A stretch of 64,000 nucleotides of DNA from an uncultured Verrucomicrobiota bacterium (GCA_964566575.1 CAZMKD010000147.1:13001-77000), one strand, 5' to 3'; shown: positions 18,553-64,000, numbered from the stretch's first letter. Notes: generated by a model not told the origin, from the sequence alone. A program made the numbers and translations.

Positions 18553-19986
18553 ATGAAATGGGATGAGATACCGGCGACCGAACAGCGCCGGCTACAAAAC
18601 GAGAAGCTGCACCGGTATCTCACCGAGGTCGTCGCGCCGTTCAGTCCGTACTACCGGAAGTTTGATCTCGGTAGGATCAAGACCGTCGAAGACCTCCGGC
18701 ATCTGCCGTTCACCACCAAAACCGATCTGCTGCCGACCTCTGAGCAGCCGGAAAAATTCCGCGAGTTCATCATCACGCCGGACATCACCGTACTCAAACA
18801 CCGGCCGCGCGTCATGGCCGAAGCCATGTTTCGCGGCCGGCGCGCCGTCGAGCGCCGGTTCGAGCGCGAGTACCGGCCGATCTTTCTCACCGCGACCACC
18901 GGTCGGAGTTCGTCCCCGGTCGCTTTCGCGTACACCGAGCATGACATGCACAATCTCCGCGAAACCGGCGCGCGACTGATCCAGACTTTTGGCTGCACCA
19001 CCAAGATGCGCGGGGTGAACATGTTTCCGTACGCGCCACATCTGGCTTTCTGGCAGGTCGTGTTTGCCGGGCTGGAGTTCGGGATGCTCATTCTCAGTAC
19101 CGGCGGCGGCAAAGTCATGGGCACGGACGGCAACATCCACGCGATCGAAAAGATCAAACCCGAAGCGCTCGCCGGCATCCCGACGTTCGTCTATCACGTC
19201 ATCCGTCAGGCCCACGAAGAAGGCCGGCGTTGGCCGCAAGTCAGCAAAATCATTCTCGGCGGCGAAAAATCTCCGCAAGGCATCCGGCGCAAGATTGTTA
19301 GTCTGTTGCAGGAAATGGGTGCCGGTGATGTCCGCGTCTGCAGCACGTATGGATTCACGGAGTCGCGCACCGCGTGGGGCGAATGCCCGCCGCCGCCCGG
19401 CGAATGGAGCGGCTATCATCTGTTCCCGGACCTCGGTATCTTCGAAGTCATTGACCCGATCACGAGCGAAGTGAAAGGGGAGGGAGAGCCGGGCGAGTTG
19501 GTTTACACGCCACTCGATGCGCGCGGCACCGTCGTGCTGCGTTACCGGACGGGCGACTATGTGGACGGCGGTCTCACGTGGGAACCGTGCCCGCATTGCG
19601 GCCGAACCGTGCCTCGCATCGTGGGCGGCATCGGTCGCGCGAGCAACACGAAAGAACTGCAGTTCGGGAAACTCAAGGGCACACTCGTCAACTTCGACAC
19701 CCTCCAACACATCCTCGACGACTCGTCCGATGTCAGCGAATGGCAACTCGAAATCCGCAAAGCCCATGACGATCCGCACGACGTGGACGAGCTTGTGCTA
19801 CACATCGCGCCCGACAACGGCGCAAACGTTGACCGCCTGAAGGACAAGATCCGGCAGCGCTTCCAGACAGAAGTCGAGGTCACGCCCAACCGCATCGAAG
19901 TTCATTCGCTCGATGATATGCTGCGCCGCATCAAGCTGGAAACCAGCCTCAAAGAAGTCCGTATTCTCGACGCCCGGCCGAAGTAA
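18553..19986 (+). CDS. phenylacetate-CoA ligase family (PaaK-like) adenylate-forming enzyme
   Basis: 477 aa. PaaK-like architecture with ...TTGRSSSPV..., YGFTES and GEPGELVYT. Confidence 0.8.
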   Translation: MKWDEIPATEQRRLQNEKLHRYLTEVVAPFSPYYRKFDLGRIKTVEDLRHLPFTTKTDLLPTSEQPEKFREFIITPDITVLKHRPRVMAEAMFRGRRAVERRFEREYRPIFLTATTGRSSSPVAFAYTEHDMHNLRETGARLIQTFGCTTKMRGVNMFPYAPHLAFWQVVFAGLEFGMLILSTGGGKVMGTDGNIHAIEKIKPEALAGIPTFVYHVIRQAHEEGRRWPQVSKIILGGEKSPQGIRRKIVSLLQEMGAGDVRVCSTYGFTESRTAWGECPPPPGEWSGYHLFPDLGIFEVIDPITSEVKGEGEPGELVYTPLDARGTVVLRYRTGDYVDGGLTWEPCPHCGRTVPRIVGGIGRASNTKELQFGKLKGTLVNFDTLQHILDDSSDVSEWQLEIRKAHDDPHDVDELVLHIAPDNGANVDRLKDKIRQRFQTEVEVTPNRIEVHSLDDMLRRIKLETSLKEVRILDARPK

Positions 19987-20075: not shown

Positions 20076-20260
20076 TCAGCCGCGTTTATAGATTTCGCGG
20101 CGGTTGCCAACGTAGTGAAGGTAGAGGCGTCCTTGACTCACGTCGAATTCGTAGAGGATTCGATAATCTCCCACGCGCAGCTTGCATTCCGCACGACCAG
20201 TCAGGCGTTTGTGTGGATACCCCCAACGTAGCAAATGACCGGTGAGTTGCAACGTCTGTC
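20076..20260 (-). pseudogene. RelE/ParE-family toxin, N-terminally truncated remnant
   Basis: Hand translation gives LTGHLLRWGYPHKRLTGRAECKLRVGDYRILYEFDVSQGRLYLHYVGNRREIYKRG*, the conserved RelE/ParE C-terminal core. There is no start codon, about 30 aa are missing from the N-terminus, and no antitoxin gene is present. Confidence 0.6.
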
Positions 20261-20263: not shown

Positions 20264-20323
20264 ATCAAGCTGGAGACGTCTCTGAAGGAAGTCCGCATCC
20301 TCGACGCCCGACCGAAGGCGTAG
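20264..20323 (+). pseudogene. displaced second copy of the last 19 codons of the PaaK-like gene
   Basis: Encodes IKLETSLKEVRILDARPKA*. This is the same peptide as 19930..19986, differing by 8 synonymous codon changes and no non-synonymous ones. Confidence 0.6.
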
Positions 20324-39168: not shown

Positions 39169-39187
39169 CGCATACAGAAATGACACA

Positions 39188-48344: not shown

Positions 48345-48412
48345 GGGCGCGGCATCTTACGCGGCTGCTGCCTGTATTGCAACGGCGACGAGGACGTGCT
48401 ACCGATAAAGCC

Positions 48413-49600: not shown

Positions 49601-50786
49601 GCCCGAGCGCGAGCAGGTCGTGGCCGGTCAACAACGGGGCTGGTTTCAAGACTTCGGGCGGCAGCTCAGCGGCCTTGGTCTTGAGAAACTCGTAATTCTC
49701 CAGATTCCGGTGACTCGAGGCGCAGTCGATGCAGTGCAATTCGAGTTCGTCCGGGAACGTCTCGCGGGCAAGGATGCGTTTCAGCTTGGCCGGCCGCATT
49801 TCTTTCACGAATTGAAATCGCATGTGCTCGGCCACGCACAGTACGACCTTCGCAATCGTGTCGTTCGGAAACCGCAGCCGCTCCAAGATCTGCGCGGTCA
49901 TCTCCGCCCCGATGCGGTCGTGGTCGTTGAAGCGAATGCGGTCGGGCGCGCGCTCAAACGTCGGCGGCTTTCCCACGTCGTGCAGCAGAACGGCCAACGC
50001 CAGCACAGGACTGGGGTTCGCCGGCAACGCATCGAGCATCAGTCCGGTATGCGTGAACACGTCGCCCTCGGGATGAAACTCGGCCGGTTGCTCGACGCCT
50101 TTCATCGCTGCGATCTCCGGTAGGATTTCGGGCAACAACCCGGTCGCGTCGAGCAACTCCAGTCCGCGCCCCGCGTTTGGTCGCGTCAGAATCTTGATCA
50201 ACTCGTCCCGGATGCGCTCCGCGCTGACGACATTGATCTGCCCGGCCAGTTCGCGCGCTGCGGCGAAAGTCGCCGGCTCGATGTCATACCCGAGGTTGCT
50301 GGCAAATCGCACACACCTCAGCAGCCGCAGCTTGTCCTCCGTGAAGCGTTGCTGGGCATCGCCGATGCACCGAACAATCTTGCGCTCGATGTCGGCTCGA
50401 CCGCCGACGAAATCTATGATGTCTCCAGTCAGCGGATCGTAGAAGAGTCCGTTCACCGTGAAGTCGCGGCGCTGGGCGTCCTGTTCGGGTGAGCTGAACT
50501 TCACGCCGGTCGGCCTGCGACCGTCCAAATACACCTCGTCGCTGCGGAAGGTCGCGACCTCGAACTGGTGTCCGTCTTCTAGGACGAGCACGACGCCGAA
50601 CTGTGCGCCTACCGGCACCGTCTTCGCGAACAACCGTTGCACGTCGTCCGGGGTGGCGCTCGTGGCAATATCGAAATCGCGCGGTTCGACGCCGCGCACC
50701 ATGTCGCGGACGCACCCGCCGGCGAAGTAGGCGGTGTGCCCCGCCTCGCGCAGCCGGCGGACGATGCTGGTAGCCTCGTCCCGCAT
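49476..50786 (-). CDS. cca: CCA tRNA nucleotidyltransferase / poly(A) polymerase family with HD domain
   Basis: GGCVRDMVRGVEPRDFDIAT (the nucleotidyltransferase head) and an HD domain (LLHDVGKP). Confidence 0.85.
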   Translation of the reverse strand: MRDEATSIVRRLREAGHTAYFAGGCVRDMVRGVEPRDFDIATSATPDDVQRLFAKTVPVGAQFGVVLVLEDGHQFEVATFRSDEVYLDGRRPTGVKFSSPEQDAQRRDFTVNGLFYDPLTGDIIDFVGGRADIERKIVRCIGDAQQRFTEDKLRLLRCVRFASNLGYDIEPATFAAARELAGQINVVSAERIRDELIKILTRPNAGRGLELLDATGLLPEILPEIAAMKGVEQPAEFHPEGDVFTHTGLMLDALPANPSPVLALAVLLHDVGKPPTFERAPDRIRFNDHDRIGAEMTAQILERLRFPNDTIAKVVLCVAEHMRFQFVKEMRPAKLKRILARETFPDELELHCIDCASSHRNLENYEFLKTKAAELPPEVLKPAPLLTGHDLLALGLTPGPLVGQILREAEEAQLEERLRSREEALAFARQRVGELA

Positions 50787-50791
50787 GCCGG

Positions 50792-51868
50792 TCAGTTCGC
50801 CTCGTCGGCTTCGTGTTCGATGGCGGTGACTTCCTTGCGGTGGGTGAGATAGAAGATTGCCCCCACGAGACTCCAGACCAAGTTGGCCAGATACCCCAGC
50901 AGCGACAGGGCGACGGCGAGCGAGGCGGCCATGCCCACTTCACTGAACATCTGGGCGTACATCAACTCCCGGACGCCAAAGCCGGAGATGCTGATGGGAA
51001 TAGCGGTCACGCTGTTGATGATCGGCAGATACAGCAGGTAATCAATGAGACCGTTGGTCGTGACGACGCCGAGCCCCCGGCCAACGCACCAGATGGAGAG
51101 CATCGATGCCAGATGGATGAAGAAGGACTGCACCAACGTGCTCACGAGCACGGTCGGGTGGGAGGCATATTGCCGGTAGGCGTCGACCATGCGCTTCAGG
51201 GTGTCGTAGCGCGGCATCTTCTGCAATGTGGCGCGCAACCGTGGCAGTTTATCGGCAAACCCGCGCCAAAAACCCACGATCGTGCCGGTCACACACGCCA
51301 GCACGAATGTCAGCGTGATGACGGCAAAGCTGCGCAACCGGACATCATCAAACACCCGGTGGTGATAGATCGTCATCATGATCAGCGCCAACACGAACAG
51401 CGCGAGCAGGCCAATGAGGCGGTCGACGACAACGGTCGCGACAGCCTCGGCCTTTTTATGGTGCGTTTCATGGGCGACATACCACGCTTTGATCACGTCG
51501 CCACCGGTTGAGCCGAGCAGAAAGGCGTTAAAAAACATCCCCACGAAGACGATGGAAGCGGCGCGCGGAAATTTGAGTTCCAAGCCCTGCACGCGCAGGA
51601 TCATCTGCCACCGAATGATGCCAAGCACGCACACGATTCCCACCGACAGCGTCCCCGCCGCGAACCACAAAAGGTTGACTCTCTGAAACACCTCCCACAA
51701 CACCTGCGGGCCTTTGGTCCAAACGATGTGCTCGCGCTCCGTCCACGTCATCGTGTCGAGATTGGAAACGAGTTTCTTCGCCTCGGCGTGGAAAATGCCG
51801 TTGAACAGATAGGCGAGGATACCGACGCTGACCAGAATGCGCAGGAGGGCGAGCAATCTTTGTTTCAT
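50792..51868 (-). CDS. flippase-like/UPF0104 (lysylphosphatidylglycerol-synthase TM-region) family membrane protein
   Basis: About 8 TM helices, the typical UPF0104 topology. Confidence 0.7.
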   Translation of the reverse strand: MKQRLLALLRILVSVGILAYLFNGIFHAEAKKLVSNLDTMTWTEREHIVWTKGPQVLWEVFQRVNLLWFAAGTLSVGIVCVLGIIRWQMILRVQGLELKFPRAASIVFVGMFFNAFLLGSTGGDVIKAWYVAHETHHKKAEAVATVVVDRLIGLLALFVLALIMMTIYHHRVFDDVRLRSFAVITLTFVLACVTGTIVGFWRGFADKLPRLRATLQKMPRYDTLKRMVDAYRQYASHPTVLVSTLVQSFFIHLASMLSIWCVGRGLGVVTTNGLIDYLLYLPIINSVTAIPISISGFGVRELMYAQMFSEVGMAASLAVALSLLGYLANLVWSLVGAIFYLTHRKEVTAIEHEADEAN

Positions 51869-52788
51869 TTGTGGACGGGACTCCGCAAAATTCCCTCAGC
51901 ACGACGGCAGGCTGCGGCGACTTGCTCGCCGCTCCAGTTGTGGTGAAGCTCCCACGTCAGGATCATGTCCTCGGTCAGATACCGGGTCAGCCGCGAGAAA
52001 TCAAACGTCCCGAGCCCGGGCGGCTGGTGGTCGAATGCCGGTGGGGTAAAATCCTGAAGATGCATACCGGCGGTCCGTCCACGATACCGTTCGAGAATGG
52101 ATTCATGGCTGGTGATCCCGAAGTTCTCCTTCACCTGTGCATGTCCAACATCGTGCCAATAACTGACCGCGTCGGCACCATAGCGGTTGATGAGTTCGGT
52201 CACTTCATACTCGCTGGGGATCTCTTCGAGACAGAACCGCGTCTCCAGCCCCAATCGCACACCGGCCCGCCGCGCGCGCGGCACAATTTCGTCGAGCGAG
52301 CGCAACACCTGGGCAAAATACTTCGGTCGGTTGTTGGCGCGGGCCGTCACCGCCTTCACGCGCACGCGCTCGAACTTCGGCGTCTTCGCCTTGCCGTTGG
52401 CGAACAGCTTCATGAGTTTGTCGGTGTAATCGCGCATCTCAATTTCGCCGAGATGGAGCACAACCATCTTGGCGCCGAGGCTCGCGGCAAACTCGATCGT
52501 GCGCAACGTGTGCCGCACGGCCAACTGGCGTTCGGCCTCGCGCAGTGAACTCGGCCGATACCGGTCCGGCGACGGTCCCGTCACGCCGACCGGTAACGGG
52601 CAAAAATTGTGCAAGGAGCTGATCTTGATTTCGCCGGCCGCCACCGCCGCCCGGATGCCGTCGACCATCGACAGCGGCGTGCCGTGTCCGAGCTCGGCGT
52701 ACTCGAAGCCCAGCGCCCGCACTTCGGCCAGCAACGCCCGGCCGTCGGTATGCCGCCCCGTGTTCCAGCAGGTCGAGAATGCAAACAT
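51865..52788 (-). CDS. sugar phosphate isomerase/epimerase (xylose-isomerase-like TIM barrel)
   Basis: ...GFEYAELGH..., ...VVLHLGE..., ...GLETRF.... The start is assigned at MFAFSTCW. Confidence 0.7.
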   Translation of the reverse strand: MFAFSTCWNTGRHTDGRALLAEVRALGFEYAELGHGTPLSMVDGIRAAVAAGEIKISSLHNFCPLPVGVTGPSPDRYRPSSLREAERQLAVRHTLRTIEFAASLGAKMVVLHLGEIEMRDYTDKLMKLFANGKAKTPKFERVRVKAVTARANNRPKYFAQVLRSLDEIVPRARRAGVRLGLETRFCLEEIPSEYEVTELINRYGADAVSYWHDVGHAQVKENFGITSHESILERYRGRTAGMHLQDFTPPAFDHQPPGLGTFDFSRLTRYLTEDMILTWELHHNWSGEQVAAACRRAEGILRSPVHK

Positions 52789-52855
52789 AACAGTTGAGGC
52801 CAACGTGCCCATACGAGCGTCGCGTTGGCCTCGGCGCGAATCAATTGCCGGTGTA

Positions 52856-53032
52856 TTAGAACCCGACGAAGTTGCGCGGTCCTTTCGCTTTGCGCCGACG
52901 CTTTTCGCTCGGCTTTTCGTAGTGGCGATGGGCCCGGGCCTCCCGCAACGTGCCTTCGCGGTCGAGCTTCTTCTTCAAGCGCCGCAGCGCCTTTTCCACG
53001 GGCTCGCCTTTCTTCAGTTTAACTTCTGACAA
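52856..53032 (-). CDS. rpsU: 30S ribosomal protein S21 (TTG start)
   Basis: Translated by hand: (L/M)[57 protein letters not shown]. The ORF track missed it because it has no ATG. It is preceded by the RBS GAGAGGAG and a sigma-70-type promoter. Confidence 0.7.
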
Positions 53033-53069
53033 ATGTTCTCACGCTCCTCTCAGTTCAGAATGAGTTGAC

Positions 53070-53098
53070 ATGATACGGGTGGAGTCGCAGCCTGTCAA
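53070..53098 (-). promoter_or_regulatory. sigma-70-type promoter of rpsU (TTGACA-N17-TATCAT)
   Basis: Read on the minus strand. It has a perfect -35 element, a 17-nt spacer and a near-consensus -10 element, about 35 nt upstream of the TTG start. Confidence 0.5.
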
Positions 53099-53101
53099 AA
53101 C

Positions 53102-53839
53102 CTATCGCGCCACCGCGTTCGTGCCGCCCGGTAACAGTGCTGCCAGTGGCACGAGCGGCGCGTAATCCTTTGCCGGCATCTCGGCCATGCGCCGTTGCAG
53201 AGTTGCCGGCTCGTCCAGCGCCATCCCGCTCAAGCGGATCGGCTGCCACATCAACCCGTCGAAATGCCGGTCCACCGTGCCTTTCACGAACACGTAAAAC
53301 ACCTCGGCGAATGCCGCCACAATTCGGTTGTCGATCTTCACAAACATCGAGCCGGTGTACTCGATCGCGTCCGGCGCGCATTGCTTGTAGCGCACAACCG
53401 CCACGCCACGCCCTCCCACGTCGAACACGCCGCGCTGCATCCCTTCGACATAGAAGATCCGTTGCCCGTCGGAGCGATAGACTTGTTGGATGTAACCCTG
53501 CGCGCCAATCCGATCATCCGCGAACGTGCGCCCCGGTTCTTCTTCCACCGCCCGATACACGATTAACCCCAGCGACTGCGCCAACAACGAGCACGCCGCG
53601 ATATGATCCATCAAAAACTGGAAATGATCTGTCCGTCCCCGGAACAGTCGCGGCGGATACTGGCGGCGCAGCGTGTAACGCTCCAAGACCGGCCGCACCA
53701 ACGCGCGATTGCTCTCCGTCATCGCCGCCAGCGGCACGAGGGCGGCCGGTGCGTTGGTCCTCGCCGCACGCGCTCCCACGCTCGACAAGAGCAGCGACAA
53801 CACGACGATTCCTGCAATGCTTTGACGGACACGTGCCAT
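53102..53839 (-). CDS. secreted hypothetical protein
   Basis: Signal peptide MARVRQSIAGIVVLSLLLSSVGARA. No family recognised. Confidence 0.5.
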   Translation of the reverse strand: MARVRQSIAGIVVLSLLLSSVGARAARTNAPAALVPLAAMTESNRALVRPVLERYTLRRQYPPRLFRGRTDHFQFLMDHIAACSLLAQSLGLIVYRAVEEEPGRTFADDRIGAQGYIQQVYRSDGQRIFYVEGMQRGVFDVGGRGVAVVRYKQCAPDAIEYTGSMFVKIDNRIVAAFAEVFYVFVKGTVDRHFDGLMWQPIRLSGMALDEPATLQRRMAEMPAKDYAPLVPLAALLPGGTNAVAR

Positions 53840-54002
53840 GACGTGACTGTGTCCACGTTCTGTTCTCTGGCTCAAGTGCAAAAGAAGCAACCCAATTGAC
53901 ATTAGCGCACCCAGTCCGCGCGACTACCTTCGCACCGAAAGGGGCGGATGGCTATGAAAGCATCAGAACGAAGCCGCCGCTGCGTCTGCGGGAGTCGTGG
54001 TG

Positions 54003-55439
54003 TCAAGCTAAGCCGCCGGCCAGAAACTCCTTCAACTGCGACGCCATCTTAGGCCCGATACCGGGCACGGCGGCGATGTCTTCGACGCTGGCCGAACGCA
54101 GCCGCTGAATCGAGCCGAAATGTTTCAACAACGCCAGTTTCCGCTTCCCGCCAAACCCCGGCAACTCGTCCAGCACCGACTCCTGAATCCGGCGCTTGCG
54201 CAACTTCTGATGGTACGCATTTGCGAACCTGTGCGCTTCATCGCGCAGGCGCTGAATTAGGTGCAGGGCGGGGGAATTGCGCGACAACCGGAGTGTCTGA
54301 CCGGGCGTATAGATTTCCTCCATCTGTTTCGCCAGTCCAATCACCGGCAACTGCACGCCAAGCTTAGCCAACGCTCCCATCGCCGCGCTCAACTGCCCGG
54401 CGCCGCCGTCCACCATTACCAGATCCGGCAACGCCCCGCCTTCCTCGCGCAGCCGGGCATACCGGCGGCCGACGACCTCCGCCATCGACGCAAAATCATC
54501 GCTGCCCTCGACCGTCCGGATCTGGTAATGCCGGTAATGTTCCTTGTGGGGTTTGCCGTCACGAAAGCAAACCGTTGAAGCGACCGCGAGCGTGCCGGAG
54601 ATATTGGAAATATCGAAGCCTTCAATGTGCGCCGCCGCCGGTAATCCCAAGACTTGCCGCAACTCCGCCATCTCCGCCTGCCGGTCGATCTTCGGCGATA
54701 AGTCCCGGGCAAACTTCCGCTCGCGCGACGCTCGCGCAATCTCCCGCAAACTATTGATCACATCGCGGAACTCGCCCGCCTTCTCGAACTGCATCAACTG
54801 CGCCGCCTCGCGCATCTGGATGTCGAGTTCCGCGAGCGCCTCGCGGTTGTGGCCTTCGAGAAAGCCGCACGCCAACGCGATCCGCCGCCGGTATTCCTCG
54901 CGCGGCATGTCTTTCAACGGCACCGGCACGAGATACGTCGAGTACTTCAAGTCTTTGGCCGTCGGTGCGCCCATACCCTGGACGAGCACGCCATACTTCT
55001 TGCGCATCCACTGCATCACTGCACGAACCGCCCCGGCATGCGCGAACGGCCCGAAATACAGCGCCCCATCGTCCTTCTTCAACCGCGCGAACTTGAAGCG
55101 CGGGTACTGGTCGGTGAGACTAACCTTCACGAGCAGGAAGCGTTTGTCGTCCTTGAACGTCACGTTGTAATGCGGCCGGTATTCCTTGATGAGCTTGCCT
55201 TCGAGCAACAAGGCTTCCGGCTCGCTGTTCACGACGAACGTCTCGAAGTCCGCGATGGAATCGATCAACGCCCGCGTCTTCGGGTCATACCGGAGCCGTC
55301 GCGACGGAGTGAAGTATTGCGACACGCGTTTGCGCAACGACCGCGCCTTGCCGACGTAGATCACGCGCCCCAGCCGGTCGCGCATCAGGTAGACGCCGGG
55401 CTTATTCGGGAGTTCCCGGACTTTGGCCTTGAGGTTCAC
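54003..55439 (-). CDS. uvrC: excinuclease ABC subunit C
   Basis: GIY-YIG (PGVYLMRDRLGRVIYVGKA), the UvrC homology region and a C-terminal HhH. Confidence 0.9.
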   Translation of the reverse strand: MNLKAKVRELPNKPGVYLMRDRLGRVIYVGKARSLRKRVSQYFTPSRRLRYDPKTRALIDSIADFETFVVNSEPEALLLEGKLIKEYRPHYNVTFKDDKRFLLVKVSLTDQYPRFKFARLKKDDGALYFGPFAHAGAVRAVMQWMRKKYGVLVQGMGAPTAKDLKYSTYLVPVPLKDMPREEYRRRIALACGFLEGHNREALAELDIQMREAAQLMQFEKAGEFRDVINSLREIARASRERKFARDLSPKIDRQAEMAELRQVLGLPAAAHIEGFDISNISGTLAVASTVCFRDGKPHKEHYRHYQIRTVEGSDDFASMAEVVGRRYARLREEGGALPDLVMVDGGAGQLSAAMGALAKLGVQLPVIGLAKQMEEIYTPGQTLRLSRNSPALHLIQRLRDEAHRFANAYHQKLRKRRIQESVLDELPGFGGKRKLALLKHFGSIQRLRSASVEDIAAVPGIGPKMASQLKEFLAGGLA

Positions 55440-55623
55440 GACGCGCGCTTTGCCGAATACCGGCCGTGCCGCTCGGCGACCTTGCTGGGCGATGGTAACC
55501 GGGTCGAGGCGTGGGAATGTAAACCGGCCTCGTAACCGGCGCGCGCCAGCCGCCGGGCGAGATCGCGCAGTTCACTGATTCGCCGCACGGTTTGTTCGGC
55601 GGCAGTGGGCGTGTTCGAACGTT

Positions 55624-56082
55624 TCATCGTCGCTGGCGGAGAAATTCGATGTCGGCCTTGTCGCTGGCCGAACCGCGGAGTCGTTTCATCGCAACCAGAT
55701 CACGGGCATTCACGACCGGCAGTGAAATCTTGCCGAACGGCACCCGGACCACCCGCTTCAATACGTTCTTCATCCGGGTCGAAGCGGGGACGAGCACATC
55801 CACGATCATCACATCTTCAGCCTTGGGCAGCCCCTTGAAAAACCGCTGGAGCGTCAACCCGGCGCGGGCAAATTCCTGCGTCACGGGATTCGCGCGATAC
55901 CGCAACCGCCGCAACGTCGCCGTCGTCGCCGGCAAGTCGTCCGGGTGGACGAGGAAGTCCATATCTTGCGTCGCCCGGACGTACCCATGCAGGCCGACCG
56001 CGAAGCCGCCCGTGACGGCATAGCGCACGTTCGCCCGCGCCAACGAGCGGACAATCCGATCGAATTCAAGATAGAGCGACAT
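55624..56082 (-). CDS. minimal nucleotidyltransferase-fold protein
   Basis: YAVTGGFAVGLHGYVRATQDMDFLV fits the hG[GS]x9-13Dh[DE] pattern, and a third acidic residue follows in IVDVLV. 152 aa. Confidence 0.65.
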   Translation of the reverse strand: MSLYLEFDRIVRSLARANVRYAVTGGFAVGLHGYVRATQDMDFLVHPDDLPATTATLRRLRYRANPVTQEFARAGLTLQRFFKGLPKAEDVMIVDVLVPASTRMKNVLKRVVRVPFGKISLPVVNARDLVAMKRLRGSASDKADIEFLRQRR

Positions 56083-56210
56083 AGCTGAACGCCGGTGAGC
56101 GTAAAGTCAAACCGCGTGCGATGCAATCCGCCAATCGACACGACGCATGATACCCGAATTACCGGCCGATTTGGAGTGCCACCGCTTGGTCGTGGGATTG
56201 TCGGACGCTC

Positions 56211-56597
56211 TCAACTCTTGTCCGAGTCCTCAAACGGACCAAGACGCTTCTGTAAAGTGCGCCAATTTCTAATTGCGTAAATCCAGAATGTCCCAATCCA
56301 CGAAAGAAAAACAACCAGAAACCAGAGATACCGGAGATTGCTTGTCGAAGGTCGTGGACCGGTGAACAGCAGTGCTATGCAGCCAAAGAATGGAATGAAA
56401 ATAAACACCGCGAGTCCACAAAGGAATACGAAAAACCGCCCCCATTCGTTTCTCGTACGACTGATGAGCAGCGAGTAGTAATGAACAAGGATGCAGGTAT
56501 AGAGCCCCAACCCAATTCCGGCAAATAATCGAATTACATATCTCATGCCGTCAGCGGCTAACATTAGTAATGCGACAGAACCTGCGGTGAAAGCCAA
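56211..56597 (-). CDS. hypothetical 4-TM membrane protein (low GC)
   Basis: 128 aa with four hydrophobic helices. GC is about 47%. The gene ends 5 nt from the displaced murJ fragment. Confidence 0.5.
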   Translation of the reverse strand: MAFTAGSVALLMLAADGMRYVIRLFAGIGLGLYTCILVHYYSLLISRTRNEWGRFFVFLCGLAVFIFIPFFGCIALLFTGPRPSTSNLRYLWFLVVFLSWIGTFWIYAIRNWRTLQKRLGPFEDSDKS

Positions 56598-56601
56598 ATC
56601 G

Positions 56602-56805
56602 TCAATTGCCGGGCAGCTTCGCGCCGAACTTCAAGACGCCGAGAAGCTCACCGAACTCCGCCACGCGCAGCAAGGCGCAACATACGCCGAAGACGACCAA
56701 CCCCACGACCATCGAGCCGGCCACATCGAGATACCGGTGCCTGCGAGCACGTGGTGCACGCCCAATATGGCGGCGCTCATCACGGCGGAGGCGAGGCACG
56801 AACGC
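56602..56805 (-). pseudogene. displaced, frameshifted copy of the murJ 3' end (last roughly 65 codons)
   Basis: About 85-90% nt identity to 57505..57710. It encodes ...RYLDVAGSMVVGL(V/I)VFG(V/A)CCALLRVAEFGEL(L/M)GVLKF.AK.P.., with a 1-nt frameshift relative to MurJ. Confidence 0.7.
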
Positions 56806-56859
56806 AGATGGTGACGCGATGATTTACATACCATCGCAGACTGTGATATGTTTGCCGCA

Positions 56860-57090
56860 ATGGAAACAGCCACCGTTACTCTTGAAGGCGACCATCTGAC
56901 GGTTCGATTGCCGAAAGGCGTTCACTTGCCTACGCCCACGGTGTCAGTCCGACACGAAGGCGAGTCCGTCATCTTGGAACCGGTCAAGCCGACCGCGTGG
57001 CCGGAACAATTCTTCGAGTCCATCCGGATTGACGACTTGGCTTTTGTCCGTCTGGCACAAGGATTACCGCCAACGGTCAGAGGTTGGTAG
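56860..57090 (+). CDS. vapB: AbrB/SpoVT-type antitoxin VapB
   Basis: METATVTLEGDHLTVRLPKGVHLPTPTVSVRHEGESVILEPV, a swapped-hairpin AbrB fold. Confidence 0.75.
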   Translation: METATVTLEGDHLTVRLPKGVHLPTPTVSVRHEGESVILEPVKPTAWPEQFFESIRIDDLAFVRLAQGLPPTVRGW

Positions 57091-57099
57091 CCAGCCGGC

Positions 57100-57495
57100 A
57101 TGACCCACCTGCTCGACACCGACACTTGCATCGGGATTCTGCGTCAGCAATCAGGTTTCGTGGAGCGCTTGAGCCGGTTATCGCCCGTCGATGTGGCGGT
57201 GTCCATGGTGACGGTTTATGAGTTGTTCAGCGGCATTGAGAAAACTCGCGAGCCAGCGACCGAACGCCTGAAGGTGGCCCGCTTCCTTGCCGTGGTGAAT
57301 GAACTACCGTTTGACCGGGCCTCCGCCGAAATCGCCGCGCGGATTCGCATGGAGTTGGAGCGCGCTGGCCGCCCCATTGGCCCGTACGACCTACTGATTG
57401 CCGGACAAGCATTGTCTCACGGTCTCATTCTTGTGACCAACAATGTCACTGAATTCCAGCGGGTCGCGGGGCTGACACTCGAATCTTGGTCATAG
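57100..57495 (+). CDS. vapC: PIN-domain toxin VapC
   Basis: MTHLLDTDTCIGIL..., with conserved acidic residues and the GPYDLLIAGQAL... segment. Confidence 0.85.
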   Translation: MTHLLDTDTCIGILRQQSGFVERLSRLSPVDVAVSMVTVYELFSGIEKTREPATERLKVARFLAVVNELPFDRASAEIAARIRMELERAGRPIGPYDLLIAGQALSHGLILVTNNVTEFQRVAGLTLESWS

Positions 57496-57504
57496 TAGCC
57501 CCGG

Positions 57505-59085
57505 TCAGTCGCTCGGCTGTTTTGCGCTGAACTTCAACACGCCCATAAGTTCTCCGAACTCCGCCACGCGCAGCAGCGCGCAGCACGCGCCGAAGACGAT
57601 CAACCCCACGACCATCGAGCCGGCCACGTCGAGATACCGGTGCGCTTGGAGCACGTGGTGCACGCCCAAGATGGCGGCGGTCATCACGGCTGAGGCGAGG
57701 CCGATCTTTACCAGCGATTTCAACAGCGCGCCGGCCTCGACGCGTTCGATGCGGCGGCGCATCAGGGCGAGCAGCAGGAAGAAATTCGTCAGCGCCACGC
57801 ACGAGGTGGACAACGCCAGCCCAGCCGTGCCCATGCCCAAGCGCATCGCGAACAACCAGTCGAGTCCGGCGTTGATGACGATGGAGAACAATGCGACGTA
57901 CATCGGCGTGCGCGCGTCGCCAAAGGCGTAGAACGTGGGCGCGATGACCTTGATGGCGGCGTAGCCGGCCAGGCCGACGGCGAACGCTTGGACGCACAAC
58001 GCGGTCTGCGCGGTTGACGCGGCGTCGAACCGGCCGTGTTGGTAGATGGCGGCAATGATGGGCTGCGCGAGTGCCGCCAGTCCGCACGCGGCCGGCACGC
58101 ACAGAAAGAACGCCAGCCGGATTGACCGGCCGAGGGTTTTCCGAAACTCGACGATCTCGCCGCGCGCGATGTGAGCGCTAGCAGTCGGCAGCGTCGCGAC
58201 CCCGATGGCGACGCCAAACAGACCAATCGGAAACTGTATGAGCCGGAACGCGCAGTTCAGAAACGTGACCGCGCCGTCGCCGAAGTAGGACGCAAACCAG
58301 TTGTCGATGAAGACGTTGATCTGCACCGCCGACGCGCCGAGCACGGCCGGGCCGACGAGTTTGACGACCCGTTGAAATCCCGGGTCGTGCCAGTCGAGAA
58401 TCGGTTCGTACCGGTAGCCGATGCTGCGCAGGCTCGGCACTTGGATGAACCATTGCGCCGCGCCGCCGATGAGCGTGCCGAACGCGATGCCCTTGATGGC
58501 TGCCGGGCCAAAGTTCGGGTCGAACCAATACGCCAGCCCGACGCCACCGATAATCGAGCCGACATTGAACATCATAGAAGCGCTGGCCGGTACGCCAAAC
58601 CGATGTTTGGCGTTGAGCATGCCCATTGCGAGCGCAGCGACGGCGACCATCGGCAGAAACGGAAACATGATCCGCGTGAGCGTCACGGTCAGCTCCGTCT
58701 TGCCGGGAATGTTGGCGAAGCCGGGCGCGATCGCCCGCACCAGCCACGGCGAAGCAATGATGCCGACCACCGTGATCACGCTGAGCAGAATCAGGAGCGC
58801 GTTCAGCACGAGATTGGCGAGCCGCCACGCGCCCTTATCGCCTTCGGCGGTGAGCTTCTGTGAAAACGTGGTGACGAACGCGGCCGAGAGCGCGCCCTCC
58901 GCGAAGAGGTCACGCAGCAGGTTCGGGATGCGAAACGCGGTGACGAACGCATCAAACTCCCGGCTTGCGCCGAACAATGTTGCGAGCACTTGTTCGCGGA
59001 CGAGACCGAGCACGCGGCTGCCGAGAACGGCCAGACTGACGGTGCGCGCGGCGCGGACGACGGTGGGGCGTGGTTGGTCGCTCAT
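57505..59085 (-). CDS. murJ: lipid II flippase MurJ (MviN)
   Basis: 14-TM MATE-like fold with a MurJ N-terminus (...AVLGSRVLGLVREQVLATLFGAS...). The start is assigned at MSDQPRP. Confidence 0.9.
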   Translation of the reverse strand: MSDQPRPTVVRAARTVSLAVLGSRVLGLVREQVLATLFGASREFDAFVTAFRIPNLLRDLFAEGALSAAFVTTFSQKLTAEGDKGAWRLANLVLNALLILLSVITVVGIIASPWLVRAIAPGFANIPGKTELTVTLTRIMFPFLPMVAVAALAMGMLNAKHRFGVPASASMMFNVGSIIGGVGLAYWFDPNFGPAAIKGIAFGTLIGGAAQWFIQVPSLRSIGYRYEPILDWHDPGFQRVVKLVGPAVLGASAVQINVFIDNWFASYFGDGAVTFLNCAFRLIQFPIGLFGVAIGVATLPTASAHIARGEIVEFRKTLGRSIRLAFFLCVPAACGLAALAQPIIAAIYQHGRFDAASTAQTALCVQAFAVGLAGYAAIKVIAPTFYAFGDARTPMYVALFSIVINAGLDWLFAMRLGMGTAGLALSTSCVALTNFFLLLALMRRRIERVEAGALLKSLVKIGLASAVMTAAILGVHHVLQAHRYLDVAGSMVVGLIVFGACCALLRVAEFGELMGVLKFSAKQPSD

Positions 59086-59209
59086 CTCGGTAGGGACGGA
59101 TTGCCGCACAGACGGCGGTGCGGCGTCTCGGCGCAGCGCCTCGGCTGTCCGGGCCGTCCGTCTTGTGTAGTTCGCGGCGCGCCCGGCGGTCGCGCCCTAC
59201 CGGGATTGC

Positions 59210-60310
59210 TCATGTGTGACCGTGCGTCGTTTCGGTTTGCTGCCACAGTTTCAGCACGGCTTCGGTGACTTGCTCAACAGTAATGTTGTTCATGCAGCGG
59301 AAATCAATCGGGCATTTTCGGAGAAAACACGGTGTGCATTCCACAGCGGCGCTCACGACGGCCGCTCGCGGGTCAAGCGGTCCGGTCAGCTCGGCGGACG
59401 TTGAACCGAAGACCGCGACGACCGGCGTGCCGACGGCGGTCGCCAGGTGCATCGGGCCGGTATCGTTCGTGAGGAGTAGTTTACAGAAACCGATAAGTTC
59501 GCAGAGTTCGAGCAGCGTGGTCTTGCCGGCAACATTGACAACCGCGCGGTCGTCGCCAAGGCTCGCGCGCAATTCCGCCTCGATCTTGCCGGCGATTTCC
59601 ACATCGCCGGGGCCGCCGAGTAGTAGCCACCGGCAGGCGACTTCGGCGGAGACGCGCTGGGCGACTTCGGCGAAGCGCTCGGGCATCCACCGTTTGGCCG
59701 GACCGTATTCGGCGCCGGCGTTGAGGGCAAAGACCGGACGCGAGCCTTCGTGGATGAATTTGGTCAGCGACGGCAACTCGCCCGGCGCGAGCCAGATCTT
59801 CGGCCGGGTAATTTCGCGATTGCCGCCTAGGAACCAGATGAGGTCGAGATACCGGTGGGACTGGTGGCGGATCGTGGGGAATGATTTCACCTTGAAGGTT
59901 TTACCAGCGACCGTGATGTCCTTGTACACGGGCCGCTCGGTATGCGGTTCTTCGACGACATGCGTGAGCAGCATGCGCCGCCAATGGCCGGCGAACCCGA
60001 CCCGGGTCGGGATGCCGGCGCGCCAGCACTCCCACGCGGAGCGAAAGGAATTGGGGAAGATGATGGCGACGTCGTAGTTGTGAGCGCGGAGTTGGCCAAC
60101 ATCGATGACCTCGTTGATGTAGGGGTTGTGTCGCCACAGGTCGTGGAGTTTGGCGGGGCAGAGTAGGGTGATGTGGGCGTCGCGCTCCCGTTCTCGCAGG
60201 CGTTGCACCGCCGGCATGGTCATCACGGCGTCGCCGATCCAGTTGGTGGCGCGCACGAGGATGCGAGCGTGGGGCGTGTTAACGATGGCAGATGGTTCGG
60301 ACGGCGTCAT
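59210..60310 (-). CDS. ADP-heptose:LPS heptosyltransferase (glycosyltransferase family 9)
   Basis: ...LLTNDTGPMHLATAVGTPVVAVFGSTS..., the GT9 signature. The start is assigned at MTPSEPS. Confidence 0.8.
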   Translation of the reverse strand: MTPSEPSAIVNTPHARILVRATNWIGDAVMTMPAVQRLRERERDAHITLLCPAKLHDLWRHNPYINEVIDVGQLRAHNYDVAIIFPNSFRSAWECWRAGIPTRVGFAGHWRRMLLTHVVEEPHTERPVYKDITVAGKTFKVKSFPTIRHQSHRYLDLIWFLGGNREITRPKIWLAPGELPSLTKFIHEGSRPVFALNAGAEYGPAKRWMPERFAEVAQRVSAEVACRWLLLGGPGDVEIAGKIEAELRASLGDDRAVVNVAGKTTLLELCELIGFCKLLLTNDTGPMHLATAVGTPVVAVFGSTSAELTGPLDPRAAVVSAAVECTPCFLRKCPIDFRCMNNITVEQVTEAVLKLWQQTETTHGHT

Positions 60311-61439
60311 CAAAGTCTTTCGCTCCCGCGATGATTCGGATTTCCACTCGTAAGAAGTAAACGGGGATGTCTCGTCGGTCGATCTTTGGAAAGCGGACAG
60401 CGTCTTTTTCCGTGGTGAGGATTGCTTTGGCGCCACGCTTGAGGCTGCGGTTGATCATGTTGATGATTTCTTGTTGCGTGTAGCGGTGGTGGTCGGCGTA
60501 CGCTTTGCGGTAGACGACCTTTGCCCCCAATCCTCGCAGACCGTCCTCGAAGCTTTCGGGTGCAGCGATCCCGGAGAGGGCGGCCACATCGAGGTCGACA
60601 AGACGTTTGAGGTCGTGGCGCTCGCCGGTGAAAACATCTTGGAGGTAGAGCGGATGATGGGCGCACTCGATGATTTCGGCGGTCTCGTTGAATTGCCGGA
60701 TGGCTTTGCGGAGTTTGTCCGCGCCGAACTTGCTGGATTTGGTGATGAAGATGTAGCTGGCACGTTTAAGGTTGGTGATCGGCTCGCGGAGCGTGCCGCG
60801 GGGGAGGAGGTAGTGATTGCCGAACGGATTGTTGCGGTCGACAAGACAAATGTCCAACCGGCTCTTGAGCGCGAGGTATTGAAACCCATCGTCGAGCAAC
60901 AACGTGTCGCAGCCGAACCGTTGGATCGCATAGCGGCCGGACTTGACGCGGTCTTTGTCCACAAGCACCACGACATCCTTGAGGTTGGACGCTAGCATGT
61001 ACGGCTCGTCGCCAGCTTGTTCGCTGTCGAGTAGCAACGACTGACCATCGGAAACGACTTTGGGAGGGATCTTGTCTTCTTGAAGCGTCATCTTGGCGAC
61101 GATGCGTTGCCAGAGTGGGCGGGGCGTGCTCTTGTAGCCGCGCGAAAGGATGGCAACGCGCCGGCCAGCATGTTGCAGGGCCCGCGCGAAGACTTCGACG
61201 ACCGGGGTCTTGCCGGTGCCGCCGACGGTGAGGTTGCCGATGCTGACGACTTGGCAGCCAAGTGTGTGGTCGCGAAAGATGCGATGACGCCAGAGGAAGA
61301 GGCGCGCTTGGATGGCGCCAGCGTAGATGCGCGACAAACCCAGCAGCAGTCCGCTGGTCAGGCGCGCGCCGAAGTCGTGTCGGCGTTTGAAAATGACGTC
61401 GAGGACGTATTGCTCGACGGATTCAGTCCATTGCCACAT
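60279..61439 (-). CDS. lpxK: tetraacyldisaccharide 4'-kinase
   Basis: [16 protein letters not shown] (the P-loop) followed by ...ILSRGYKS.... Confidence 0.85.
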
Positions 61440-61476
61440 GCGCGGCCATACTGCCGGAGCGCGCGGGAAATATCAA

Positions 61477-61668
61477 TCACGACCACGGACGCAGCAGGCT
61501 CTTGGCGAGGCAATGCTCGTAGTAGGCTTTGCGCTTGTTACGGCTGTGTCGGAAGGTTGGATCCGAAAGCCAGAGCCAGAAAAACTCCAGCCACTGCTTC
61601 ACATTAGAAGGAGGTATCTTACCGTTAGCCATCATGTTGTTTTTACTACAAACGCACTGCCGCGTCAA
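61477..61668 (-). CDS. hypothetical small protein (51-63 aa), low GC
   Basis: MMANGKIPPSNVKQWLEFFWLWLSDPTFRHSRNKRKAYYEHCLAKSLLRPWS. It is AT-rich compared with its neighbours and has no recognisable family. Confidence 0.3.
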   Translation of the reverse strand: MTRQCVCSKNNMMANGKIPPSNVKQWLEFFWLWLSDPTFRHSRNKRKAYYEHCLAKSLLRPWS

Positions 61669-61683
61669 ACGGTAACGCCAAGT

Positions 61684-63609
61684 TTACCGCTGGCTGGCCA
61701 TCTCGGCTTCGATCCCCTTGAGGTACTGGTCTGCGATCGGCTCGATGTTGTTGAGTTGCTGGGAGCGGCGGAGCGCCTCGATCGCACCGGCGATATCGCC
61801 TTGACGATGCCCAAACATCCCGAGCCGCAGCCAGCTGAAAGCGTTGTTTGGGTCTACTGCCAGCGCATGACCATAGGTCCGTGCCGCACTGGCGATGTCG
61901 CCGGCCAACTCGTAGGCCGCCGCCAGCCGCAGCATGACCTCCGACTGGTACGGATTCAATCTCAGCGACTCCCGGTAAGAGTTTACTGCCAGGTCGGCGA
62001 ACCGGCGCTGCTCGCGACTGTCTTCAGGGGCGTCGGCCAACGAGCTTTGCATCCGGTACGAATCGCCAATTTCCGCGAGCGGCTCGGGGTTGCCGGGATC
62101 GTGACGCCGTGCGCGCTCATAGAACGTCTGCGCCCGAGCCCATTCGAATTCCTGACTGGAGTTGTAACCAACTGCCGTGTCGCGTGCGCTCAGACTGAAT
62201 CGCGCACCGAACCAACCCAGTCCGGCCGCCACCACGATCACCCCGAAGGCGAGAGCGAATCGGTTCGGTGTGTGGAACTCACGGTGCCGGCTCTCAGTCG
62301 GGTTTGAGCTGGGCGCGACCGTGAGGGCCATGAGGGTCACCAGCCACATCGCGTTCGCCGGTATGTGGAGATTGAAATCGACGAAAGAATGCACAAGGAT
62401 GGCGGTGACGGCGGCACTGCTGCCCAGCGCGAAGGCGCGCAACTCCACGGATTCATCTTGCCGCGCAAGCCGCCACGCGTGCCGGTAGAAGCAAGCCAGC
62501 ATTATCACGACAAGCGCCGCCCCGATCAATCCATAGTCGGACGCAAGCTGAAGCACGTCGTTGTGGGCGTACTGCGGGCGAATCTGCAAACGCGGATCGC
62601 GATACTTCAGATGCATCCATTCCCACGTCGCAGGCCCCGTACCCAGCCAGACGTGATCCCGGATCATGCGGACGGTCGCGTGCCAGATTGGATATCGGCC
62701 GGAAAGACCCGCCACGATTTGAATTGGCGAATCACCGGGGACGTAGTCCAGCCGCACGCGCACATCTTGTTCGATCCGGTCGCGCACGCGCGGAATGTTC
62801 CACGCTGCGACGCCGATCAGTAGGATGGTGACAAAGACAGAGATGACCAACCGCGACGACAACACCCGCGCCTTTTCCGCCCATACCAACAGAGCCAGAA
62901 GCGCTACTGCGGTGGCGATCCACCCGCCGCGCGATAGCGTCGCAAACAGTCCCAGCGCGACAAAGACGGCGGCGGCCACTTCATAGAGTTTGATGAGGAG
63001 CGTCGATTGGAGGTCGCCGAGCGGGTTGCGGTGGACGAGAAGGCGCGCGATGAGGATCGCCAACGTCATCTCGAACATCCCGGCGAGGTGATTGGGGCAG
63101 AAGTACGTGCCACTCCCGCGACCATGATAGTTCGTGCCGCGGTCCAGCCACAACACCGCATCGGCATGTGTGCGGAATTGCCACAGAGCGTAGGCCGCCT
63201 CGCCGATTGCCAGGATCAGCAGTGCGCCGACAATCACCAGCCGGTCACGTGTCCGATGCAGGTTGCTGGCGACGAGGAAGTAGATGAACGTGTACATGCC
63301 GACCTGATAGAGTTCGAATCGGGATTCGTACTCGATCGGCGAAACCGCATATCGGTACGCCGCGTAACCGGCGAACAGTAGCACCGGCACATGCATGGGC
63401 GACCACACCACTGGGACGCGTCGACATAACAACAACTTGGCGGCCCAAAACGTTGCCAGCAGCGTCACCAACACCACCAAGGGCAACGCGTACTCCGGTA
63501 GCACCCCGCCAAAAGCGATGGTCGCTGTGCCAAGACACAACACCACCGTGACGAGCAAGACAATGTCCAGCGCGGATTTCAGCATCGACTCAGACTGGTA
63601 CGCCGGCAC
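61684..63609 (-). CDS. O-antigen ligase (Wzy_C) family membrane protein with C-terminal TPR repeats
   Basis: A multi-TM region containing the Wzy_C-like loop (...LSRGGWIATAVALL... H...), and C-terminal TPR units (AEIGDSYRMQ..., LRLAAAYELAGD...). Confidence 0.8.
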   Translation of the reverse strand: MPAYQSESMLKSALDIVLLVTVVLCLGTATIAFGGVLPEYALPLVVLVTLLATFWAAKLLLCRRVPVVWSPMHVPVLLFAGYAAYRYAVSPIEYESRFELYQVGMYTFIYFLVASNLHRTRDRLVIVGALLILAIGEAAYALWQFRTHADAVLWLDRGTNYHGRGSGTYFCPNHLAGMFEMTLAILIARLLVHRNPLGDLQSTLLIKLYEVAAAVFVALGLFATLSRGGWIATAVALLALLVWAEKARVLSSRLVISVFVTILLIGVAAWNIPRVRDRIEQDVRVRLDYVPGDSPIQIVAGLSGRYPIWHATVRMIRDHVWLGTGPATWEWMHLKYRDPRLQIRPQYAHNDVLQLASDYGLIGAALVVIMLACFYRHAWRLARQDESVELRAFALGSSAAVTAILVHSFVDFNLHIPANAMWLVTLMALTVAPSSNPTESRHREFHTPNRFALAFGVIVVAAGLGWFGARFSLSARDTAVGYNSSQEFEWARAQTFYERARRHDPGNPEPLAEIGDSYRMQSSLADAPEDSREQRRFADLAVNSYRESLRLNPYQSEVMLRLAAAYELAGDIASAARTYGHALAVDPNNAFSWLRLGMFGHRQGDIAGAIEALRRSQQLNNIEPIADQYLKGIEAEMASQR

Positions 63610-63634
63610 TCGGCAGGCTGCTCGGAACCGAGGA

Positions 63635-64000
63635 TCAGCGGCTAGCCGAGGTCGGCGGAATGCCGGTGACTATCGGCCCAGCACCGTCGAGACAGTAGCC
63701 GTCTTTATCATCAGTATGACTTTGCAAGTGCCACTGTCTGGCGTGGTTGGAAACGATGATCGTGCGACCGTTGTGGCAGAGCAAATTCTTGCCCGGGCAA
63801 AGCCCGAGAATTTGCCCGTGTGCCAGATGGTCCTCCACACCATTAGCATCCACGACGATGGTGTGCACACGCAAGTTGCACATGAACATCTGGCCCGGGC
63901 ACGGCCCGTCGGAGTCGCCGTGTCCAGTGTGAGTGTCCAAAGCACTCTCGTCGATAATAAGTGTCTTGCCGTTATGGCAGACGACCGTTTTTCCCTGGCA
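63635..64000 (-). CDS. partial Cys/His-rich repeat protein; C-terminal part only, the gene runs off the window end
   Basis: Repeated 'C(H/Q)NG(K/R)T(I/L)I(V/I)' and 'HG..(L/I)G.CPG' units. The function is unknown. Confidence 0.35.
   Translation of the reverse strand, partial: CQGKTVVCHNGKTLIIDESALDTHTGHGDSDGPCPGQMFMCNLRVHTIVVDANGVEDHLAHGQILGLCPGKNLLCHNGRTIIVSNHARQWHLQSHTDDKDGYCLDGAGPIVTGIPPTSASR

Follow-up and report, generated by a model that had tools for sequence, protein, structure and literature searches.

How did an intact toxin-antitoxin (TA) gene pair come to lie between two copies of the end of an essential gene? The question is raised by a stretch of 64,000 nucleotides from an uncultured Verrucomicrobiota bacterium (GCA_964566575.1 CAZMKD010000147.1:13001-77000; the window, in whose coordinates positions are given unless another locus is named), in which the 3' end of murJ, the lipid II flippase gene, is duplicated around a vapBC module. 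An earlier note on this sequence had described the architecture as gene body, current 3' end, TA cargo, and displaced, decaying native 3' end. That architecture is borne out, because vapBC is absent from two relatives (L086 and L087), the displaced copy runs into native spacer, and the present murJ tail differs in ancestry from the native one; it can be refined in that both copies appear to be chimeras from one crossover. Probably, one reciprocal crossover brought a small unit, consisting of a murJ end and vapBC, into the 3' end of the resident murJ.

Duplication of the murJ 3' end

Comparison of the window with itself by BLAST aligned positions 56601-56797 with 57504-57701 (86.9% identity over 198 nt, E=1.3e-62), the sole dispersed duplicate of such quality in the 64 kb. 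The gene-proximal copy (copy B, 57505-57701, minus strand) constitutes the last 65 codons and the stop codon of murJ, whose open reading frame (ORF; 57505..59109, minus strand) is intact and matches Pfam MurJ with E=5e-114. The other copy (copy A, 56602..56797, minus strand) is a pseudogene that lacks one base near 56740/56741, which breaks its reading frame. The alignable sequence begins with the stop codon and breaks off sharply at 56797/57701, giving a repeat length of 197 nt and a repeat period of approximately 904 bp, and the intact vapB/vapC pair sits between A and B. The earlier note was thus right that the murJ end recurs at the nucleotide level, with an identity that it had put at roughly 85-90%, and that the second copy carries a 1-nt frameshift; its repeat coordinates are accurate except at the inner ends, which were drawn about 5-9 nt too generously. 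Both copies contain an identical 22-nt stretch (CCGAACTCCGCCACGCGCAGCA on the plus strand), located at 57554-57575 in B and at 56651-56672 in A.

Empty sites in relatives

MurJ homologues place the window in a Verrucomicrobiia lineage of metagenome-assembled genomes (MAGs). The gene order lpxK, heptosyltransferase, murJ, uvrC is common to 20 family-level relatives, in 12 of which uvrC starts no more than 180 nt from murJ, and in others unrelated cargo (PadR-like genes, small membrane proteins) occupies the murJ-uvrC junction. The junction is a variable spot. L086 (an NCBI assembly) and L087, which are approximately 90% identical to the window at the nucleotide level and collinear with it over 48000-64000, share lpxK-hepT-murJ-uvrC with a murJ-uvrC spacer of 392 nt and no vapBC, and represent empty sites. 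The check on relatives that the earlier note had proposed therefore finds murJ followed by uvrC (54003..55439, minus strand, located by tblastn synteny; directly after murJ in most relatives) and vapBC not universal at the junction.

The two copies continue opposite sides of the empty site. From 64000 down to 57521, including the native murJ body (57702..59109, minus strand), the window is approximately 90% identical to L086 and collinear with it, and copy B continues the L086 murJ body, but the alignment ends about 16 nt short of the stop codon. Positions 56797 to 56540, comprising copy A and about 60 nt past its stop codon, are 83% identical to L086 9385-9646 (the murJ end and 65 nt of spacer), so that a remnant of the native murJ-uvrC spacer (56540..56601) lies directly after copy A. 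Copy A has kept the ancestral 3' neighbourhood and copy B the ancestral 5' neighbourhood, the arrangement that an insertion between direct repeats should give.

The DNA downstream of murJ is also highly variable in L002, L003, L005, L007, L011, L013, L015, L020, L081 and L168-L170, where the cargo includes convergent aroA, alanine dehydrogenase, DUF2721, PadR-like regulators, a fatty-acid desaturase and a formyltransferase. None of these loci has a displaced murJ end, and a search downstream of murJ in 77 loci other than the window found none.

Mosaic ancestry of the two copies

The 25 differences between the copies were polarised with two outgroups, L086 and L081, which assigned 11 private changes to A (the deletion included) and 10 to B. 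Along the repeat, the derived changes are ordered BABAAAAAAAAABBABBBBBB (permutation P=0.008). In the first 140 nt, the head, B differs from L086 at 7 of 140 positions and A at 13 of 139; in the last 57 nt, the tail, B differs at 15 positions and A at 10 (A differs from L081 at 8 of 57). Copy B is identical to L086 at 133 of 140 positions in the head versus 9 of the last 18 nt (P=3e-6), and over this final stretch it agrees with the distant lineages L168 and L169 at 16 of 18 positions, third codon positions included. The last five codons of B (AAA CAG CCG AGC GAC) match L168 at 14 of 15 nt, synonymous positions included. MurJ now ends ...ELMGVLKFSAKQPSD, whereas the corresponding sequence of copy A and of the closest relatives reads ...ELLGVLKFGAK[SL]P...

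A foreign allele composed of the A head and the B tail, and a native allele composed of the B head and the A tail, account for this arrangement. Copy B is accordingly read as a chimera with the first ~140 nt native and the last ~20-57 nt foreign, and copy A as a chimera with the first ~125-147 nt foreign and the tail native. The identical 22-nt core, the likely crossover interval, follows the last A-derived change (repeat column 125) and precedes the B-derived run (from column 148). From these comparisons, the last ~16 codons of the functional MurJ appear to be of foreign ancestry.

Both copies carry a signature of purifying selection. Of the private substitutions in A, seven of ten are synonymous and three non-synonymous, compared with 25-30% synonymous expected without selection (P=0.003-0.01), and in B six of ten are synonymous (P=0.02-0.04); because of this bias, the copies are taken to have diverged as functional alleles in separate lineages. 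Decay of A after its displacement amounts to no more than three non-synonymous changes and one indel, or about 2%, and the window differs from L086 at 21% of four-fold sites. Copy A thus seems to have turned into a pseudogene not long ago.

The vapBC cassette

Two genes on the plus strand, convergent with murJ, occupy the interval between the copies, as the earlier note had held. The first, vapB (56848..57090; 80 or 76 aa depending on the start, of which 56860, METATV..., is likelier), ends 9 nt before vapC (57100..57495), the stop codon of which is 9 nt from that of murJ, with about 8 nt between. VapC contains a Pfam PIN domain (E=6.5e-16, 59.5 bits versus a cut-off of 23.6), matches NCBIfam models of the tRNA(fMet)-endonuclease VapC family (E=3e-36, below the equivalog cut-offs), and has acidic residues D6, E41, D97 and E118, which we take to correspond to those of Shigella VapC. 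For VapB, the matches to NCBIfam VapB models (E=3e-7 and 2e-6) fall below the curated cut-offs, and a further match, to the solved VapB chain 3zvk_E (E=1e-4), covers its full length (residues 2-74); the fold of this chain is presumably of the AbrB type. A Pfam search with VapB gave no match. With a PIN toxin that has the acidic residues and a VapB-family gene directly upstream, the pair is predicted to be a VapBC module.

A sigma-70-like promoter, TTTACA-N18-TATGTT with TG (56823..56852, plus strand), is the single promoter-like site within 55300-57900 and lies at the left limit of the cassette sequence that is common to other loci; this promoter-side border is kept in L083, L088 and L089. A joint of approximately 25 nt (56798..56822), without similarity to murJ or to other cassette copies, connects the cassette to copy A.

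The repeats enclose vapB and vapC alone; there is no integrase, pseudogene or other remnant. There is no integrase gene near the locus, the window being collinear with L086 over 48000-64000 apart from the inserts described here, and no tRNA genes or Rfam families were found. The 197-nt direct repeats duplicate the murJ 3' end and leave murJ intact, and relatives have the empty site, as in an integrative element, although no integrase is encoded inside. Repeats similar to attL and attR are kept and integration and transfer genes are absent, as in a cis-mobilizable element (CIME). The cassette borders have no inverted repeat, and the duplication is 197 nt long and has diverged under selection, unlike that of a transposon, insertion sequence or miniature inverted-repeat transposable element. 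There is no integron attC site, only about 8 nt following vapC and the repeats being murJ coding sequence.

Proposed integration mechanism

The unit would consist of a murJ 3'-end fragment (197 nt, to the stop codon), vapC, vapB and the vapB promoter, approximately 904 bp in all, and would have arrived once the window lineage had separated from the nearest relatives sampled. A single reciprocal crossover between the murJ fragment of the unit and the resident murJ end, similar to that of a circular molecule in Campbell-type integration, would have occurred at a point within the 22-nt core common to A and B, the incoming molecule being circular or acting as ends-in. One product would be an intact murJ with its last ~16 codons derived from the incoming DNA (copy B); the other would be the 5'-truncated copy A, with its first ~140 nt incoming and its tail and downstream spacer native. 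Copy A would have lost function at the crossover and gained its frameshift later. Because the unit encodes no recombinase, the exchange would depend on host homologous recombination or on an integrase supplied in trans; the former is plausible because 197 nt at ~90% identity make a workable substrate. Recombination between the repeats would delete vapBC, but a stable VapC toxin would be expected to kill or arrest segregants that lack vapBC, and the structure would thereby be kept.

In Campbell-type insertion-duplication, circular DNA enters via one region of homology, as suicide plasmids do and as in ectopic integration in transformable bacteria. The murJ locus is similar in that one crossover yields two hybrid copies flanking the insert, which matches the head/tail mosaic: both copies are reciprocal hybrids of resident and incoming sequence, judging by the order of changes (P=0.008) and the head and tail counts. 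One copy stays intact because the murJ fragment includes the stop codon. Unlike the process that we propose, Campbell-type integration is a laboratory or occasional event and is not described as a life style of natural TA cassettes, and the circle is here an inferred one.

Gene-end duplications at a ligase gene

A second locus of the window, which the earlier note had called scar 1, is also real. The last 19 codons of a gene for a 477-aa AMP-binding ligase are repeated around a palindromic repeat and a truncated ParE-family toxin. The current 3' end (19930..19986, plus strand) encodes ...ARPK before the stop codon, and the displaced end (20264..20322, plus strand; 54 nt, 81% identical to 19930-19983) encodes ...ARPKA. 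The cargo gene (20076..20252, minus strand) encodes the C-terminal 58 aa of a ParE/RelE-family toxin (Pfam ParE_toxin, E=1e-3, profile positions 54-89 of 89). An intact 87-aa homologue of this toxin is present in L171, which is from the sister genome, on the same contig as L086; the antitoxin region, corresponding to ~317 nt of L171, is deleted in the window.

In L171 an array (4338-5830) begins with the ligase gene and its own end (...RPKA), followed by a two-ORF cassette, a gene-end copy c2 (94 nt, 96% identical, ending ...RPK), the palindromic repeat with intact parE and a small upstream ORF, and a further gene-end copy c3 (ending ...RPKL), so that three gene-end copies separate two small cassettes. 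The current ligase end of the window is orthologous to the displaced c2, and the displaced end of the window to c3. The displaced ligase copies are considered to carry the family-typical ending because 30 ligase homologues end in ...RPK[X] before the stop codon. Cassettes of ~0.6-0.8 kb have evidently integrated repeatedly at the ligase end, each with its own copy of the gene end, the repeats being 54 and 94 nt. The same minimal design arose at least three times, and no cognate integrase-bearing element for these units was found in the loci covered.

The newest cassette at the ligase end (L171 4506-5076) is a two-gene pair encoding a 122-aa protein that ends ...ASVENLNRMLQFHGFRG and a 65-aa protein (MADQDKIE...FEAALARA...). 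The same pair is also found near a vapBC cassette in L107 (~4792-5405), has no Pfam match, and may be an undescribed toxin-antitoxin-like pair. Palindromic repeats of 30-90 nt, similar to repetitive extragenic palindromic (REP) sequences, are present in the window at 19991-20053, 24991-25077, 26393-26471, 26717-26794, 27061-27101, 27689-27749 and 29590-29617; one copy directly follows the current ligase end of scar 1, and the same element follows c2 in L171.

The vapBC family at other loci

Copies of vapBC that are 83-87% identical at the nucleotide level are found in four unrelated contexts (L083/L084, L085, L088 and L089), which include nadC with a ParE module (L083/L084), an AhpC-family gene (L085), and a collagen-repeat gene with nuoJKL (L088). 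The copies keep the same limits in all these contexts, from the promoter to the stop codon. The vapBC cassette is itself mobile, as this distribution shows. The shared sharp borders were set aside as a definition of the mobile unit, neutral flanks being unalignable in any case at a cassette divergence of 13-16%. None of 83 other vapC loci has a murJ fragment beside vapC.

Direct repeats (E<=1e-6) that flank the cassette on either side, no more than 400 nt away, are present in 8 of 63 testable metagenome vapBC loci. For random positions taken from comparable DNA the count is 8 of 599, an enrichment of about 10-fold (odds ratio 10.7, P=3e-5). The bracketing repeats contain none of the integron attC core motifs (RYYYAAC/GTTRRRY). 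In L113, next to an Uma2 gene, and L167, next to a TPR gene, the repeat holds the stop codon and last codons of an intact gene, and the cassette occurs in either orientation relative to the host gene. Along with scar 1 and the tandem array of L171, the enrichment of repeats around the vapBC family agrees with the suggestion in the earlier note of a family of events at gene 3' ends.

In L108 (2859-2971 / 3715-3829) and L118 (546-608 / 1358-1421 / 2073-2109) the repeat is not a gene end: it is a structured intergenic sequence of ~60-115 nt with a 14-bp stem (minimum free energy with RNA parameters ~-55 to -58 kcal/mol, flanks included) that parts adjacent TA cassettes (vapBC; a ParE/Phd-like pair) and likewise has no attC core motifs. 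Fragments of the ThiC C-terminus, matching PDB 4s25 residues 516-545 (E=9e-4), are located ~50 nt upstream of vapB in L092 (87-212), L094 (223-324 / 1088-1112 / 1810-1925), L098 (385-509) and L115 (1932-1994). These four loci were dropped as clean further examples: the last thiC codons (…ATT TAC GCG AAG GCG TGA) overlap the -35 box of the vapB promoter, frameshifts disrupt the fragments, and in L098 an internal ThiC motif also follows vapC. The thiC-associated loci count in the repeat statistics only and are not further evidence.

Alternative explanations

Several points tell against entry of a murJ-end and vapBC unit by a single crossover. A donor with a murJ end beside vapBC was not found in the 83 vapC loci or the 77 murJ loci, and no circular form or junction read was seen. 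The proposal gives no account of the first capture of a new host-gene fragment by a cassette, and the sharp borders of the cassette may reflect selection on the promoter and genes rather than the ends of a mobile unit. The murJ/vapBC structure is on one MAG contig only, whereas the parallel ligase locus is in two independent assemblies. The mosaic comprises about 21 polarised sites, read against two usable outgroups within a short 197-nt repeat; the MurJ tail is fast-evolving in all lineages; and the KQPSD ending of B is a widespread ancestral type, so that retention instead of import is possible. Assembly artefact, in which strain variants were joined at the murJ end in a chimeric contig, would fit the occurrence of the structure on one NCBI MAG contig only; but the inner junction at 56797/56798 offers no repeated k-mer by which contigs could be mis-joined, the copies differ by 13% and are separated by a unique 0.7-kb cassette, and similar anatomy at the ligase gene appears in two independent assemblies, making an artefact hardly credible.

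Among biological alternatives, a larger integrative element (a genomic island, an integrative and conjugative element (ICE) or integrative and mobilizable element (IME), or a prophage) that encoded its own integrase and carried the murJ 3' end in its attP may have entered site-specifically and then been whittled by internal deletions to vapBC and the att repeats, leaving a CIME-like scar. The earlier note had likewise taken the cassette to be what is left of a decayed larger element. Att-like direct repeats, a regenerated target, a foreign gene-proximal tail and the tandem accretion in L171 are hallmarks of site-specific elements and CIMEs (PMC5704250), and a model of streamlining to TA-only islets has been published (PMC13617665). 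This derivation is nevertheless unlikely: the locus has no integrase, pseudogene or other remnant and only ~8 nt and ~25 nt unaccounted for. The decay of A, at most ~2%, leaves little time for whittling in multiple steps, and there would be no selection to keep the displaced repeat through the deletions. All three independent units, the one at murJ and the pair at the ligase gene, fall within 0.6-0.9 kb, and the repeat lengths at one gene are unequal (54 and 94 nt). In the 83 vapC loci, the 77 murJ loci and the window, no parent ICE or IME, or remnant of one, was found.

That the duplication arose in situ, 197 nt of resident murJ being copied as illegitimate recombination or template switching inserted the cassette, before A decayed neutrally and B was selected, is very improbable, despite a possible TCG microhomology at the inner junction and five derived states, relative to L086 and L081, that the two copies share. 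The synonymous bias of the private changes in A (7 of 10, P=0.003-0.01) is not that of neutral decay; the B tail carries more change than the whole length of A and matches distant lineages at synonymous positions; and the spatial sorting of the changes is left unexplained. A reading of copy A as a wholly native end decaying neutrally was rejected because its private changes are 7/10 synonymous and confined to the head, and illegitimate recombination and template switching, which that reading carried with it, were dropped together with it. The polarity could also be the reverse, with B wholly native and vapBC already downstream, and with A, its spacer and perhaps the four-transmembrane (4-TM) region beyond imported later from a relative similar to L086 by homology-facilitated illegitimate recombination anchored in uvrC. 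The family-wide ancestral type of the B tail and the mere 83% identity of A and its spacer to L086 favour this order of events. It is quite improbable all the same, in that it needs a derived tail in L086, L087 and L081 but not in the window lineage nested among them, leaves the divergence of the head of A, and not of its tail, unexplained, and runs counter to scar 1, in which the displaced copy has the native-type ending. The single crossover between an incoming murJ-end unit and the resident murJ remains the favoured explanation.

Neighbouring inserts and other features of the window

Two further ORFs on the minus strand lie between copy A and uvrC. One (56211..56597) is low in GC (0.47 versus ~0.62), has three to four hydrophobic helices by hydropathy, and belongs to a separate lineage-specific replacement or insertion (~56181-56539). 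The other (55624..56082) is a small nucleotidyltransferase-like ORF, with sub-threshold matches to Pfam NTP_transf_5 and DUF6036, inside a separate insertion of ~700 nt (55438-56138) between uvrC and a conserved 42-nt block (56139..56180) that is 97.6% identical to L086 9929-9970 and lies just upstream of uvrC in relatives. No homologue of the low-GC ORF or of the nucleotidyltransferase-like insertion was found in L086, L087 or any other fetched locus. The earlier note had suggested that these 4-TM and nucleotidyltransferase genes are older cargo; membership of the vapBC element was rejected, since they are parted from vapBC and from each other by conserved native blocks (copy A and 60 nt of spacer; the 42-nt element at 56139-56180). 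They represent independent insertions in a busy spot.

Elsewhere in the window, an 855-aa ORF (20383-22950, minus strand) with tandem repeats in units of ~90, 135 and 270 nt encodes a beta-helix-like repeat protein, tandem paralogues of 160 and 137 aa (38614-39601) are 53% identical, and inverted paralogous genes (35465-36907 and 46944-48344) are 41% identical over ~470 aa.

Significance and comparison with known systems

It is not yet settled how chromosomal TA modules pass from genome to genome and from site to site. In current models they hitch-hike on larger mobile elements and are then streamlined (PMC13617665). The murJ locus, its twin at the ligase gene and the enrichment in metagenomes point to a testable unit, namely a two-gene cassette with a private host-gene end. 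Such insertions rewrite the C-termini of essential genes, MurJ ending in codons of apparently foreign ancestry, and the displaced gene ends can be used as datable markers of each integration. A wider proposal, put forward tentatively and perhaps doubtful, is that the sub-kilobase TA cassettes of these soil bacteria are self-contained, recombinase-free integrative elements, which would use a host gene 3'-end fragment as a homology address, loop out between repeats, re-enter related genomes by a RecA-mediated single crossover or ends-in event that regenerates the target, and accumulate in tandem, with the toxin guarding against loss. If so, the chimeric ends left on murJ and other essential genes would be incidental to this process, and a minimal class of selfish DNA would be added to those known.

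The cassette itself resembles the VapBC modules of Shigella, Salmonella, Leptospira and Rickettsia in the order vapB-vapC, the 9-nt gap and the PIN domain with its acidic residues, and its VapB is homologous over the full length to the Rickettsia felis chain 3zvk_E. Compared with the tRNA(fMet)-cleaving type of VapBC, the window proteins score under the NCBIfam equivalog cut-offs, and both this target specificity and the toxicity are predictions.

In its setting, the murJ unit is similar to genomic islands, ICEs and prophages that insert at the 3' ends of tRNA or protein genes with a replacement end in attP: the current end is derived from the element, the native end is displaced, and empty sites exist. 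It differs in its sub-kilobase size and in encoding neither a recombinase of the tyrosine or serine type nor genes for transfer or replication. Toxin-antitoxin islets are very small TA-only islands in variable spots that erode by toxin truncation (Belot et al. 2026, PMC13617665), and scar 1 resembles them in the truncation of its toxin. In Microcystis, a pair of identical 152-bp direct repeats encloses a ParE/ParD module that lies downstream of a host gene (PMC7935541). The papers on these two systems mention no repeats that copy the coding end of the neighbour, no chimeric regenerated genes, and no tandem arrays of such units.

The closest known kind is the CIME, an att-flanked remnant of an integrative element. 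CIMEs have no recombination genes and undergo tandem accretion at gene 3' ends (Pavlovic 2004; Bellanger 2011; reviewed in PMC5704250). The units described here are alike in the direct repeats of the target 3' end, cargo without integration genes, the regenerated target, and tandem build-up as in L171. Known CIMEs, however, span kilobases and can be recognised as deletion derivatives of ICEs or IMEs, the integrase of which acts on defined att cores, whereas these units measure 0.6-0.9 kb and contain only a gene-end copy and a two-gene cassette, with repeats of 54 and 94 nt at one gene and 197 nt at murJ. The units are not filed as strict CIMEs, for which derivation from an ICE or IME is required; if an integrase does act in trans, CIME-type accretion would extend to the Verrucomicrobiota and to sub-kilobase cargo.

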